From assembly GCA_040754455.1 (NCBI GenBank), contig JBFMCP010000018.1, positions 1 to 62,009 on the forward strand: a stretch of 62,009 nt of DNA, read 5' to 3'. The notes under the pieces are model-generated. The model was not told the DNA's origin and searched no databases. It saw only the letters and a list, made by a program, of their open reading frames with translations. A program made the position numbers and the translations under genes. This document shows, one piece after another, positions 49,747 to 58,409 of this stretch (the stretch's first letter is position 1; every line of letters begins with the position of its first letter). This stretch comes from Nitrospirota bacterium (GTDB lineage Bacteria; Nitrospirota; Thermodesulfovibrionia; Thermodesulfovibrionales; Dissulfurispiraceae).

Positions 49747-50541
49747 TTATTGTGTTTTGGGACTATATTGGCGCTTGAGCCAGCGGCTGAGGCCGTCGAG
49801 GCCGGGGAAAAGCACCCGTTCGGTAATATTCGCCTGGTCGAGCTTGTCGCGGATCTCCCACTTCAGCTCCGCAGGAATAATGATTTTGCGCCACAGTTCT
49901 GGGTAGTCCTTCATCCAGTCATCAAGCACATCCTTGGAGGTGGACATGACCGAAAAGAGGGCGAACTGGTTCACGATCCGGTCATCCATCGAAGGTGGCT
50001 CGATGAAGAGGACAAAATCGTTCCTGCAGAGATTGGACAGCTCCTCCAAGGACTTAACCGCCTCGGCAAGCATATCGACGGTAAAGACGTTCGCTCCCTC
50101 CTGATCGAGCTGAAACCTGAGCCGCTCGGGGAGCAGACGGTGGGCGTGGACATAATTGACGGCCCAGATAACACCGTCGATATCGAATTTCTCTATATTC
50201 GCGGTCGCAAAATGCATAGCAACAAGAGGGGAGTAGGTCCAGTCGAGCAATCGTGAGGGGAGGCCATAGTGCTGCGCGACAGAGAGCCAGTGCCATACCG
50301 AGTCATGCTGCACCACATTCCGCAATGCATATTTCCTGAAGTTCCTCAAAAGGTGGCGCTCGAGATCTTCGAACTTACCCCCCAGCCTGATCAGAGTCGT
50401 CTGGAGCGGATATTGGGCATCCGAGAGTCCTCTGAAGGCGTAGCGAGAACGGAAGCGTCCCAGTTCAGGGTTCCAGGAATCTTCGTAGAGCTGCTCCTGG
50501 AGCTCGTGCCAGCTGCTGATTCGTATAATGTTTGTAGTCAT
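49747..50541 (-). CDS. FRG domain protein
   Basis: YAFRG, AQHYGLPSRLLDWTYSPLVAMHFA, RIVNQFALF, ITERVLFPGLDG. Confidence 0.93.
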   Translation of the reverse strand: MTTNIIRISSWHELQEQLYEDSWNPELGRFRSRYAFRGLSDAQYPLQTTLIRLGGKFEDLERHLLRNFRKYALRNVVQHDSVWHWLSVAQHYGLPSRLLDWTYSPLVAMHFATANIEKFDIDGVIWAVNYVHAHRLLPERLRFQLDQEGANVFTVDMLAEAVKSLEELSNLCRNDFVLFIEPPSMDDRIVNQFALFSVMSTSKDVLDDWMKDYPELWRKIIIPAELKWEIRDKLDQANITERVLFPGLDGLSRWLKRQYSPKTQ

Positions 50542-50752
50542 CGCAGAGCAAAATCCTACAGAGTGGATGAGCTATTGTACCACGGCGGGAAGGAAAAAAA
50601 AGAGCAGATCATAAGAAGTGAAGCTGCTGCAATCAAAACGCGAGTTCCCCTGCCATTCTCCGCTTCAGAAATATACAGACCCGCTATTCAGTCAATTATA
50701 TCACAAAAAAACGGCCCTTCTATTTTGGGCATTGATCTTTGAGCCCTGCCAC

Positions 50753-50780
50753 TTGACACGCTTTTTGGAGCTGATATTAT
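50753..50780 (+). promoter_or_regulatory. Sigma70-type promoter of the peptide/radical SAM operon
   Basis: TTGACA-N16-TATTAT with extended TG, about 70 nt upstream of the peptide ATG. Confidence 0.6.
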
Positions 50781-50849
50781 ATAGTCAAAACCTATGAATA
50801 ACCGATTATTTATAGGAATGTAACTACAGGAGAAGGGAGGTGAGAGCGG

Positions 50850-50972
50850 ATGAAAAAGGCGTTGAGCACCAAAGCCCTTGCAAAGGAGGCATCTTTCTGG
50901 GCCGGTCTCAAGAAAGCGGCGAAGGAGCATCCCGGTAAGGTATGCCACAAGTGAAAGGGTTGAAAGAGCTGA
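50850..50972 (+). CDS. Putative selenocysteine-containing RiPP precursor, MKKALSTKALAKEASFWAGLKKAAKEHPGKVCHK-U-KG-U-KS*
   Basis: GGGAGGTGA RBS; Cys32 followed by in-frame TGA at 50952, 50961 and 50970 (exact 3-codon period); SECIS-like hairpin immediately downstream; radical SAM/SPASM gene next. Confidence 0.8.
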
Positions 50973-50991
50973 TGTTGCCGGTCAGGCAACA
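50973..50991 (+). promoter_or_regulatory. Putative bacterial SECIS element
   Basis: TGTTGCC-GGTCA-GGCAACA: 7-bp stem with a G-starting loop, 25 and 16 nt after the first two UGAs. Confidence 0.7.
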
Positions 50992-51005
50992 AATTAAAGG
51001 CAAAA

Positions 51006-51049
51006 GGCAGATACGTTATCGTAATGGTACGTATCTGCCGTATTTTTTT
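51006..51049 (+). terminator. Intercistronic hairpin / leaky terminator between precursor and maturase
   Basis: GGCAGATACGT...ACGTATCTGCC followed by GTATTTTTTT. Confidence 0.75.
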
Positions 51050-51081
51050 ACGGAAAGAATATACGGAGACCGGTAAATCCC

Positions 51082-52128
51082 ATGTCCACAACCAATGCTT
51101 TTGATTTTTTCGTCCAGTGGCATCTTACGGAGCAATGCAATCTCGGGTGTACCCACTGCTATCAGACCGGCATCAGGCACCAAGAGCTTTCATTGCCCGA
51201 GATAGTGGAGACGCTCGCTGAAATAGAGGAGATGCTGGGTGACTGGAAAGAGTCCTATGCCATCGATCTTTCACCGAGCATTAATGTCACCGGCGGAGAG
51301 CCCTTCCTGCGCAGCGACTTTTTCGATATTCTCAAAGCCATGGGCGCGCGGGGGTTTGCGCTCTATGTCCTTACGAACGGCACTCTCATTGATGATCAGA
51401 AGGCGAAAGCGCTCTCTGATCTTGGCGTAAAAGGTGTCCAGGTGAGCATCGAGGGTCCCGAGGCGATCCATGAGTCGATCCGGGGAAGAGGAAGCTTTAC
51501 CGCCTCGCTGAAAGGAATTGCCCGTCTGCTTGATGCAGGGCTGAAGGTGACCCTGAACACTACGCTCTCGTCGGTGAATGCCGCGCATTTTATGGAACTG
51601 ATCGACCTCTCCTTACGCCTGGGGGTCCACCGCCTCGGTTTTTCGCGACTCGTTCCTTCGGGAAGAGGAGAGGCCATGCTCGACACCATGCTCTCTACCG
51701 AAACGGTGAGAGGACTTTATAAGCGGATTTTCTCTCAGGATACCGGTGGCCTGGAGATCGTCACCGGCGATCCCGTTGCAGCGCAACTCACGGCTCAAGA
51801 GCAGGAGGGCAGCCACAGTTCAACTCCTTCGGGAGGATGTGCAGCAGGCATATCCGGCATCACGATCCTCCCCGATGGCACACTCATCCCGTGCAGGAGG
51901 CTTCCAGTTCCTCTCGGGAATATCAAAAAAGACTCCCTGCGCGAGATATGGGCGACTTCAGAAGTTTTGGAGGCGCTGAGGGACAGGTCGCGCTATAAGG
52001 GGAAGTGCGGCGCCTGCTCCCGCTGGGCGCAGTGCAGGGGATGCAGGGCAATCGCCTATGCCTGTTCAAAGGCGAAGGGAAGCGAAGATCTGCTCGCCGA
52101 AGACCCGCAGTGCTTTATTGGCAATTAG
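51082..52128 (+). CDS. Radical SAM/SPASM domain peptide maturase
   Basis: QWHLTEQCNLGCTHC (CxxxCxxC), TGGEP, TNG; SPASM GCAAG...PC...CGAC..WAQCRGC...DPQC. Confidence 0.93.
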   Translation: MSTTNAFDFFVQWHLTEQCNLGCTHCYQTGIRHQELSLPEIVETLAEIEEMLGDWKESYAIDLSPSINVTGGEPFLRSDFFDILKAMGARGFALYVLTNGTLIDDQKAKALSDLGVKGVQVSIEGPEAIHESIRGRGSFTASLKGIARLLDAGLKVTLNTTLSSVNAAHFMELIDLSLRLGVHRLGFSRLVPSGRGEAMLDTMLSTETVRGLYKRIFSQDTGGLEIVTGDPVAAQLTAQEQEGSHSSTPSGGCAAGISGITILPDGTLIPCRRLPVPLGNIKKDSLREIWATSEVLEALRDRSRYKGKCGACSRWAQCRGCRAIAYACSKAKGSEDLLAEDPQCFIGN

Positions 52129-52234: not shown

Positions 52235-52762
52235 ATGTCCAAATGGATGATTGATCCTGATCATTCGGTAGCGGCTTTTGCAATACGGCATATGATGATC
52301 GCGTTTGTGCGTGGTCAATTTAATAAAATTACCGGCACGATCCAGTTCGACCCCGAGGACATTACGCGCTCCTCTGTGGAGATGGAGATCGACGTCGCGA
52401 GCCTCACGAGCGGGATTAAAAAGCGTGACGAGCACTTATTGAGCGCCGATTTCTTCGAGGTGGAAAAGTACCCGAAAATTACCTTCAAAAGTATGGGCAT
52501 CGAAAAGACCGGTACGAACAGCGGCAAAGTGACCGGCGACCTGACCATTCACGGTGTCACGCGATCCGTTACCCTTGAGGTGAGCTTTTTCGGGCCGGTG
52601 AAGAGCCCCTTCGGTGAAACGAGCATGGGGTTCAGCGCAGCAACATCGCTGAACCGGGAGGGCTTCGGCATCATGTGGAACGAGCCCATGGAAAAGGGCG
52701 GGCTCATGATCGGCAGGGATGTGGAGATCACCGTCGACATAGAGGCCGATCTCGCTGAGTAG
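52235..52762 (+). CDS. YceI-family polyisoprenoid-binding protein
   Basis: WMIDPDHS...VRGQF...RDEHLLSADFF...GDLTIHGVT. Confidence 0.93.
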   Translation: MSKWMIDPDHSVAAFAIRHMMIAFVRGQFNKITGTIQFDPEDITRSSVEMEIDVASLTSGIKKRDEHLLSADFFEVEKYPKITFKSMGIEKTGTNSGKVTGDLTIHGVTRSVTLEVSFFGPVKSPFGETSMGFSAATSLNREGFGIMWNEPMEKGGLMIGRDVEITVDIEADLAE

Positions 52763-57965: not shown

Positions 57966-58409
57966 ATGGCAACAAAGAAAGCAGCAAAAAAGAAACCGGC
58001 GGCAAAGAAGAAGGTAGCGAAGAAACCGGCAAAGAAGGCAGCGAAGAAACCGGCAGCAAAAAAGAAGGCTGCAAAGAAACCGGCGAAAAAAGTAGCTGCA
58101 AAGAAACCGGCGAAAAAAGTAGCTGCAAAGAAACCGGCAAAGAAGGCGAAAGTTAAAAGGGCGCCGAACCCGGAATTCATGAAACCGGTGAACATCAGCC
58201 CCGCACTGGCCAAGATCGTCGGAAGCACGCCAATCCCGAGGACCGAAGTAACGAAGAAGCTGTGGGCGTACATCAGAAAGAACAATCTGCAGGACAAAGT
58301 GAACAAAAGAAACATCAATGCAGATGAGAACCTCAGGGAAGTATTCGGCGGCAAGAACCAGGTCTCGATGTTCGAAATGACCAAGCTGGTCAACAAGCAC
58401 CTGAGCTAG
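57966..58409 (+). CDS. SWIB/MDM2 domain protein with histone-H1-like N-terminal repeats
   Basis: (KKPAKKxAA)n, then FMKP..ISPALA.IVG...RTEVTKKLWAYI...LQD...SMFEMTKLV. Confidence 0.93.
   Translation: MATKKAAKKKPAAKKKVAKKPAKKAAKKPAAKKKAAKKPAKKVAAKKPAKKVAAKKPAKKAKVKRAPNPEFMKPVNISPALAKIVGSTPIPRTEVTKKLWAYIRKNNLQDKVNKRNINADENLREVFGGKNQVSMFEMTKLVNKHLS

Follow-up and report, generated by a model that had tools for sequence, protein, structure and literature searches.

The question raised by this locus is whether a short open reading frame (ORF) broken by in-frame TGA codons, lying just in front of a gene for a radical S-adenosylmethionine (SAM) enzyme with a SPASM domain, is a gene at all, and if it is, how its TGA codons are read and what its product is for. 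The locus lies in a 62,009-nucleotide stretch of DNA from a Nitrospirota bacterium (contig JBFMCP010000018.1; hereafter the window, whose numbering is used throughout). The original prediction was of a selenocysteine (Sec, U)-containing precursor peptide of 40 residues ending in C-H-K-TGA-K-G-TGA-K-S-TGA, its Cys and TGA codons falling at every third place, and translation from 50850 agrees with that order. Comparison of orthologous loci indicates that the 40-residue ORF most likely reads UGA codons 35 and 38, both conserved, as Sec and stops at the third TGA. Peptide and enzyme together probably constitute a two-gene precursor and maturase system. The elements of the pair are as follows.

50836..50843, + strand: ribosome-binding site GGAGGTGA, 6 nt upstream of the ATG, read from the sequence
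50850..50972, + strand: putative selenopeptide gene, 40 residues, ATG at 50850, TGA stop (codon 41) included
50850..50942, + strand: leader rich in Lys/Ala, residues 1-31, E13 and W17 being invariant (alignment A4), predicted to dock on the radical SAM enzyme
50943..50969, + strand: predicted core C32-H-K-U35-K-G-U38-K-S (core spectrum of 159 distinct loci)
50943, + strand: TGC codon 32 (C32), from the ORF translation
50952..50954, + strand: TGA codon 35, probably read as Sec, 25 nt upstream of the loop of the selenocysteine insertion sequence (SECIS); TGA in 100/100 distinct sequences
50961..50963, + strand: TGA codon 38, probably read as Sec, 16 nt upstream of the SECIS loop; TGA in 99/100, TGC in 1/100
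50970..50972, + strand: third TGA, codon 41, the likely stop, merely 7 nt upstream of the SECIS loop
50973..50991, + strand: SECIS-type hairpin with a 7-bp stem and GGUCA loop, directly 3' of the third TGA, both UGA codons being in reach
51082..52128, + strand: radical SAM/SPASM enzyme gene, 348 aa, with Radical_SAM and SPASM above Pfam cut-offs

The ribosome site, the hairpin right after the ORF and the CxxxCxxC and SPASM motifs of the next gene had all been claimed beforehand, and each is borne out, the hairpin also by its conservation in orthologues (a G-loop hairpin occurs in 156 of 159 loci) and the enzyme by its Pfam domains and ten invariant Cys.

What carries the two-Sec reading is a comparison of 80 loci holding orthologues of the enzyme (43-67% identity; Nitrospirota, Desulfobacterota and Dehalococcoidia). 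A pattern search finds the peptide at 63 of the 80, with a GGAGG- or GGGG-like ribosome site upstream of most of the 63 ORFs. So that the core would play no part in the selection, those 63 peptides served to build a leader-only profile, which was run on all 80 loci; with a threshold of 15 bits it recovers 66, every one with TGA at codon 35, and with codon 38 being TGA in 65 and TGC in one (3 of the 14 loci missed have no upstream DNA). The peptide is, as had been anticipated, conserved beside orthologues of the maturase. At 80 metagenome loci the leader profile finds the peptide at 52 (TGA at 35 in 52, at 38 in 51), and several of the loci it misses do hold a divergent peptide according to the pattern search.

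The original prediction had staked itself on the codons past the first TGA, and these are conserved as K-[GS]-TGA-K-S with synonymous variation. Codon 35 is TGA, never TAA or TAG, throughout a set of 100 distinct sequences; codon 36 encodes Lys in 95 (AAG in 82, AAA in 13), codon 39 encodes Lys in 98, and Ser at positions 37 and 40 is spelled with both AGY and TCN codons. An alignment (A1) of 55 of the 63 pattern-found peptides with that of the window (n = 56) leaves E13, C32, U35, U/C38 and K39 invariant, and the cores of the 159 distinct loci are near-invariant as C-x-x-U-K-[GS]-U-K. Exchange between Cys codons and TGA, also foreseen, is seen at codon 38 (TGC in 1 of the 100 sequences) and is nearly absent overall, with 0/100 at codon 35; no full-length Cys form of the peptide occurs among 57 matches in protein collections. 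Across all six reading frames the genome holds 124 strings of the type C-x2-TGA-x2-TGA, and a ribosome site plus an ATG 15-60 codons upstream is present at the peptide locus only, which puts the codon pattern beyond chance.

The ORF might instead end at its first TGA, giving 34 residues, or all three TGA codons might be Sec and the peptide run on. The first of these would agree with the 57 protein-collection matches, which cover at most 34 of the 40 residues, the 18 inspected all ending at the first TGA (gene callers, it would appear, truncate the peptide everywhere); the second would agree with the third codon of the series also being TGA in the window genome, where Cys-Cys follows. Both readings are very improbable, given the constancy of codon 35, the synonymous variation of Lys and Ser codons beyond it, and the one orthologue with TGC at codon 38. 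Codon 41 is TAA or TAG in 50 of the 100 distinct sequences, and the "codons" beyond it are SECIS stem. The first stop 3' of the core in the 63 orthologues is TAA in 34, TAG in 10 and TGA in 19 (TAA/TAG in 44 of 63), and where the third codon is TGA the spacing to the SECIS loop is 6-9 nt in 44 of 45 cases (159-locus set). Readthrough to a third Sec or further was rejected, the third codon being TAA or TAG in many orthologues and lying close to the SECIS.

Natural variants, as far as their sequences go, fit this logic of readthrough and SECIS. Locus L076 (3763-3870) holds a single-Sec variant in which the hairpin has come nearer by six bases, apparently leaving the second TGA as the stop; L224 (upstream of 2198) is another single-Sec variant, having lost U38, and both cores finish after C-x2-U-K-x(-x). 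L080 has Cys at position 38. At the most distant locus, L180 (2501-4722), two tandem paralogous enzymes of the clade flank the peptide gene, whose core ends at the second TGA with TAG immediately after.

The hairpin is most likely a SECIS-type element serving both UGA codons, judged by its form and conservation. The bacterial SECIS model, as given in PMC13188914, has a loop of 3-9 nt with G within the first two places, a stem of 4-16 bp, a distance of 16-37 nt from the UGA and an energy of -7.5 kcal/mol or lower; the window hairpin lies within all of these bounds (GGUCA, 7 bp, 25 and 16 nt, -10.2 kcal/mol). Its fold is unusual on a 27-nt stretch (z -4.9, 0/200 shuffles), with z just -0.8 to -2.5 on stretches of 58-61 nt. 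A five-pair stem is intact (5/5) in 94 of the 100 distinct sequences through exchanges such as G-C for A-T and T-A for C-G. In the raw MAFFT alignment 80% of cells pair, with 14 double-sided changes, above all 500 shuffles; two of five measures of the covariation test fail to beat shuffles, and the raw alignment mis-registers unequal loops. Six of the 100 sequences have a run of 14 nt in common with the fdhF SECIS of E. coli (its apical stem-loop, as taken from the annotated genome). Rfam, run on 50700-51120, gives 9 matches, all well below gathering score. A strict genome-wide SECIS pattern matches the peptide locus and misses the selD elements, which makes it unfit as a general SECIS test.

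The genome has the means to use such an element: the predicted machinery is present as selA, selB, two selD genes (each with an in-frame TGA) and tRNA-Sec (selC). In a phylum sample of 401 Nitrospirota genomes, selA accompanies the peptide in 67 of 73 carriers, and it is present in 15/15 carrier genomes picked mostly from outside Nitrospirota. Some observations at selenium genes stand apart. A second tRNA-Sec-like gene of the window genome (L007, G000:C21:54199-54289) scores 58 bits on RF01852, has a GCA (Cys) anticodon and lies about 5 kb from the second selD amid rhodanese-like and sulfur-carrier-like genes; we take it to resemble selC*-type tRNAs. At loci L123, L127, L128 and L122 unlinked peptide genes adjoin genes that are selB-like or selD-like by translated sequence.

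Judged from their distribution in the phylum sample, the peptide and its enzyme are co-inherited whether or not they are linked. The peptide profile gives 74 matches, or 73 after dropping G028 (E 2.8e-4, within a long unrelated ORF), and with the enzyme counted at E<=1e-75 there are 73 peptide carriers, 74 enzyme carriers and 72 genomes with both, of which 64 have them adjacent (within 500 bases) and 8 do not. Among the 192 genomes with selA, 66 have both, 1 the peptide only, 2 the enzyme only and 123 neither, where independence would predict about 24 with both. Presence is patchy within families (e.g. 8/35, 7/14, 37/64). In a search that started from the peptide, the enzyme is within 1.5 kb at 28 of 30 loci. 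One genome, G344, has three peptide-profile matches (L132, L133, L134): a copy before the enzyme, a complete unlinked copy and a partial one upstream of the YceI gene described below.

The surroundings of the peptide gene include two further elements, the second of which bears on how the pair is expressed.

50753..50780, + strand: putative sigma-70-type promoter-like site, TTGACA-16-TATTAT with extended TG, 11/12 matches in a consensus scan
51006..51049, + strand: terminator-like hairpin with a 7-T run between the peptide and enzyme genes, fold z -5.5

The promoter claimed earlier stands as a near-consensus site; its mere presence is at shuffle level (shuffles average 1.5 sites, the sequence has 2), and what stands out is only the quality of the site at 50753..50780. 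The second hairpin, absent from the original prediction, is not in the output of a simple terminator scan. A terminator-like hairpin 3' of the SECIS occurs at 118 of 155 loci, compared with 15 of 150 random genome stretches.

A short UGA-rich ORF, then a terminator-like hairpin, then a gene is also the layout of an attenuator, and the ORF could be a selenium-sensing leader peptide in which stalling at UGA decides in cis whether transcription ends before the radical SAM gene. But where an enzyme locus lacks the peptide (14 genomes), 13 genomes hold an intact peptide elsewhere or on another contig, which marks the peptide as a trans partner and not a purely cis-acting leader. The 8 non-adjacent cases among 72 and the second complete, unlinked copy in G344 speak the same way, as do a leader conserved residue by residue and the specific interface modelled for it below. 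Attenuation in cis as the main role was accordingly rejected, and we regard it as scarcely credible; the peptide ORF may have a secondary regulatory effect alongside its trans role.

The enzyme has ten Cys that are invariant in 78/78 orthologues (an alignment of 77 of the 80 loci plus the window): 19, 23 and 26 of the CxxxCxxC motif, and 253, 271, 309, 312, 318, 321 and 344 of the SPASM domain (PF13186), the seven SPASM Cys sufficing for two auxiliary clusters. Invariant D230 may be a fourth ligand of auxiliary cluster I beside three Cys. The AlphaFold model (predicted local distance difference test, pLDDT, 90.6) is a partial triosephosphate isomerase (TIM) barrel that matches SkfB, PqqE, SuiB and anSME; the sactipeptide maturase SkfB is the best solved relative by both sequence and fold. 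The model starts at the barrel, with no N-terminal RiPP (ribosomally synthesized peptide with post-translational modifications) recognition element (RRE). A search for a PqqD-family gene (PF05402) finds none in the window genome. None of the NCBIfam models reaches its own cut-off on the enzyme: AhbD TIGR04545 gives 187 of 500 bits, ACGX TIGR04340 169 of 400, GeoRSP TIGR04303 157 of 400, SbtM TIGR04082 138 of 350, SkfB 75.5 of 300 and PapB 75 of 340. Membership in the AhbD, GeoRSP, ACGX, SbtM and PapB families was rejected on these scores, and a candidate on contig C44 of the same genome is far better as AhbD (447 bits). A tree was built on 53 rows trimmed to the catalytic part, with 13 enzymes drawn from the 78 and 36 representatives from a set of 150. 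A branch with support 99/98 sets the 13 peptide-linked enzymes apart from SbtM and from the AhbD-like protein of the genome, whose own branch is long and unsure. At L066 (4001-6022), one of the 78, the enzyme is in frame with a C-terminal nicotinamide adenine dinucleotide (NAD)-dependent epimerase/dehydratase domain (674 aa in all), perhaps through a lost stop codon.

A structural model of the complex supports direct docking of the leader helix on the enzyme in place of an RRE. Modelled with the peptide's first 34 residues, which end at the first TGA, the enzyme scores 0.83, against 0.02 for the best control. Of 157 solved complexes 116 attain the mark used, as do 2 of 215 mismatched pairs; our own alignments were used, so these counts hold roughly here. 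Contact agreement between runs is at least 59% and the partner pLDDT at least 69. The surest modelled contacts are from E13 of the peptide to R287 and W290 and from W17 to W55 and Y59; E13, W17, R287, W290 and W55 are invariant and Y59 is nearly so. A search of the ESM Atlas has its best value at 0.81, in clusters without a name, a lead of no weight.

If the system is precursor and maturase, chemistry known from related enzymes suggests that the C-terminal C-x2-U-x2-U core would thread into the barrel, that a selenolate or thiolate would bind the open Fe site of auxiliary cluster I (Cys 253, 271, 321), and that a 5'-deoxyadenosyl radical would abstract a hydrogen atom, leaving the core modified. 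By analogy the most likely outcome is one or more seleno- or thioether cross-links in the core, which we put forward tentatively; SbtM-like oxidation at C-beta of Sec or Cys (to selenooxazole or related) ranks next and is the more doubtful, and any other modification would be a considerable surprise. Selenoether-crosslinked or metal-binding products had been suggested as possibilities in the original prediction too. The terminator 3' of the peptide gene would keep substrate in excess over enzyme. No third gene, and no protease or transporter, is conserved among the 80 orthologous loci; the lack of a conserved protease, exporter or immunity gene suggests an intracellular product, probably one retained for redox chemistry or metal handling.

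The commonest neighbour (15 of the 80 loci) is also the gene that follows the enzyme in the window.

52235..52762, + strand: YceI-family barrel without a signal peptide (Pfam YceI; closest solved structure TT1927b, 1WUB), candidate accessory partner by phyletic co-occurrence

Signal-less YceI proteins at E<=1e-50 occur in 65 of the 401 genomes, 64 of them in the 75 genomes that carry peptide or enzyme and 1 in the other 326; that threshold was set after viewing the list, and at the searched value of 1e-45 the counts are 65/75 and 9/326. When 40 carriers are matched with 40 non-carriers that have selA, YceI is found in 33 and 0, while a control gene from the window, DUF5661, is found in 14/40 and 12/40. 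No YceI was found in 5/5 carrier genomes from outside Nitrospirota (four Dehalococcoidia and that of L076), in a search run without a same-run positive control, which makes the protein accessory. In Nitrospirota the cytoplasmic barrel would probably serve the same pathway. A literature search found no paper joining YceI, radical SAM and SPASM.

Other neighbours fared less well. A thioredoxin-reductase-like gene near 8 loci is unspecific (32/40 carriers against 21/40 non-carriers). A flavin disulfide reductase (Pyr_redox_2 plus dimerisation domain) lies 3' of YceI at 5 of 45 YceI loci (L133, L137, L174, L176, L179); with this frequency, and relatives in the window genome of just 31%, it was rejected as a core part. 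An FRG-domain gene (49747-50541, - strand) is divergent from the peptide promoter and without conservation at orthologous loci. Further off, 57966-58409 (+ strand) encodes a protein with Lys/Ala/Pro repeats, whose C-terminal stretch we take to be SWIB-like.

The YceI distribution also suits a different role for the peptide, as an accessory subunit or recyclable co-substrate and not a precursor: a leader-tethered CxxUxxU arm would ligate or reduce the open auxiliary cluster or donate Se, and the substrate of the enzyme would be a small lipophilic molecule carried by the YceI barrel. Apart from the 64/75 against 1/326 carriers of YceI (E<=1e-50), this would account for the short near-invariant core, with C-x2-U retained even in single-Sec L076 and L224, for the lack of conserved processing or export genes and for the top NCBIfam score being that of a small-molecule enzyme, AhbD; the complex model is equally compatible. 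Against it, the terminator-like hairpin between the genes (118/155 loci) would leave peptide in excess, as substrates are, and YceI was not found in the five carriers from other phyla (a result to be read with the limit given above). The layout of core and docking leader is moreover typical of RRE-less maturases: the ChlB-leader complex has been solved, and SuiB is reportedly another such maturase using a docking leader. On balance we think the accessory role unlikely and prefer precursor and maturase.

Several points weigh against that preference. No protease or transporter is conserved, the core is near-invariant and lacks an Asp/Glu acceptor such as the CX3D type of PapB, and by hidden Markov model (HMM) score the enzyme is nearer to AhbD, NirJ2, ACGX, GeoRSP and SbtM (187-138 bits) than to PapB (75). 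The SECIS energy reaches -7.5 kcal/mol in merely 106 of 159 loci, and the spacing from U38 is 15 nt in 73 cases by our own count, one below the 16-nt limit of the model. Six of the 73 peptide carriers have no selA match (genomes 63-96% complete); five of the six were tested, with tRNA-Sec in 3/5 and selB above cut-off in 1/5. The co-occurrence counts include kin and are not independent. The complex model covers just the 34-residue leader part, with our own alignments and a rough calibration; it is like leader-enzyme complexes already solved (SuiB-SuiA, ChlB-ChlA), and the predicted binding fits substrate and subunit equally. Modification, expression and Se incorporation are all predictions.

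A bolder form of the precursor-maturase reading can be stated, as an idea with some chance of being right and a better one of being wrong: the enzyme would build a selenoether-stapled (or other Se-C bonded) intracellular cofactor from the CxxUxxU arm, handled by a dedicated cytoplasmic YceI barrel. If true, this would be the selenium counterpart of peptide-derived cofactors such as pyrroloquinoline quinone (PQQ) and mycofactocin, occurring in anaerobes from three phyla or more and overlooked for the near-lack of Cys-only relatives.

The system looks like a second, unrelated and seemingly uncatalogued family of selenium-containing modified peptides. A literature search that took in passages of the BSepDB (PMC13326102) and deep-Sep (PMC12013277) articles and the abstract and outline of PMC13692751 found no description of the selenopeptide. 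Among the 119 families tabulated in a 2026 review, SbtA ("selenobacteriocin") is the sole selenopeptide tied to a peptide-modifying enzyme (PMC13188914). The June 2026 release of NCBIfam, with which the prediction proposed to gauge novelty, has no model for the selenopeptide, and neither gene passes any cut-off; NCBIfam and Pfam on 56 peptides give scattered weak matches, none for that of the window. The selenopeptide could be listed in Deng 2026, which is said to have looked for new selenoproteins in groundwater genomes. The system occurs in roughly one in three of the phylum-sample genomes with selA (67/192) and in Desulfobacterota and Dehalococcoidia, and the near-lack of Cys-only homologues marks a blind spot of methods based on Cys/Sec pairs. 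It would offer a compact natural case of one SECIS for two UGA codons nine bases apart with a third UGA terminating and, for the Se-C chemistry of radical SAM enzymes, a natural substrate that can be tested directly.

Among known systems, AhbD, GeoRSP and ACGX supply the best-scoring NCBIfam models for the enzyme, yet all far below cut-off, and the PqqD-family partner expected with GeoRSP was not found in the window genome. The polyisoprenoid-binding barrels YceI and TT1927b (PF04264) share with the neighbouring protein the Pfam match, and that protein matches 1WUB at 3.7e-38; the window protein differs in belonging to a signal-less subfamily whose distribution tracks the selenopeptide system in Nitrospirota. 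CteB, PapB and Tte1186 have, according to PMC10177961, a seven-Cys SPASM spacing like that of the window enzyme, with three Cys on auxiliary cluster I. The same source gives a scheme in which Sec-substituted peptides bind this cluster (AC1) and are then cross-linked, and describes PapB and Tte1186 as making selenoethers on synthetic Sec peptides, the only substrates on which it presents radical SAM selenium cross-linking as shown so far. In contrast to these enzymes and SkfB, that of the window has no RRE and 348 aa, and its candidate substrate has no CX3D acceptor and a Sec that would be genetically encoded.

The nearest parallel is SbtA/SbtM (TIGR04081/TIGR04082), likewise a short two-Sec peptide beside a radical SAM/SPASM enzyme in anaerobes. 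SbtA carries its Sec in a GGUG/SGUG motif (PMC9204691; table in PMC13188914) and SbtM forms thio(seleno)oxazoles (PMC9204691). SbtM (3/3) has the pocket residues Q12, H14, Q120, R189, D230 and R272 of the window enzyme, residues that are common among the other 142 representatives and thus not diagnostic for kinship with SbtM. The original prediction had set the new pair apart from the Geobacter one, and the comparison agrees. In SbtA a hydrophobic leader goes with SGUG repeats, whereas in the window peptide a basic helical leader goes with a terminal CxxUxxU; hhalign gives a probability of 0.1%, that is, no detectable likeness, and TIGR04081 has 0 matches among 56 peptides, with SbtA from L261 as positive control at 33.5 against a cut-off of 30.5. 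SbtM is 480-531 aa long with a long N-terminal extension, compared with 348 aa here, is 27-28% identical to the window enzyme (three SbtM loci), carries one more Cys, placed five residues N-terminal to the first SPASM Cys, and sits on a separate branch of the tree. One genome, G442, holds both SbtA/SbtM and the selenopeptide system.

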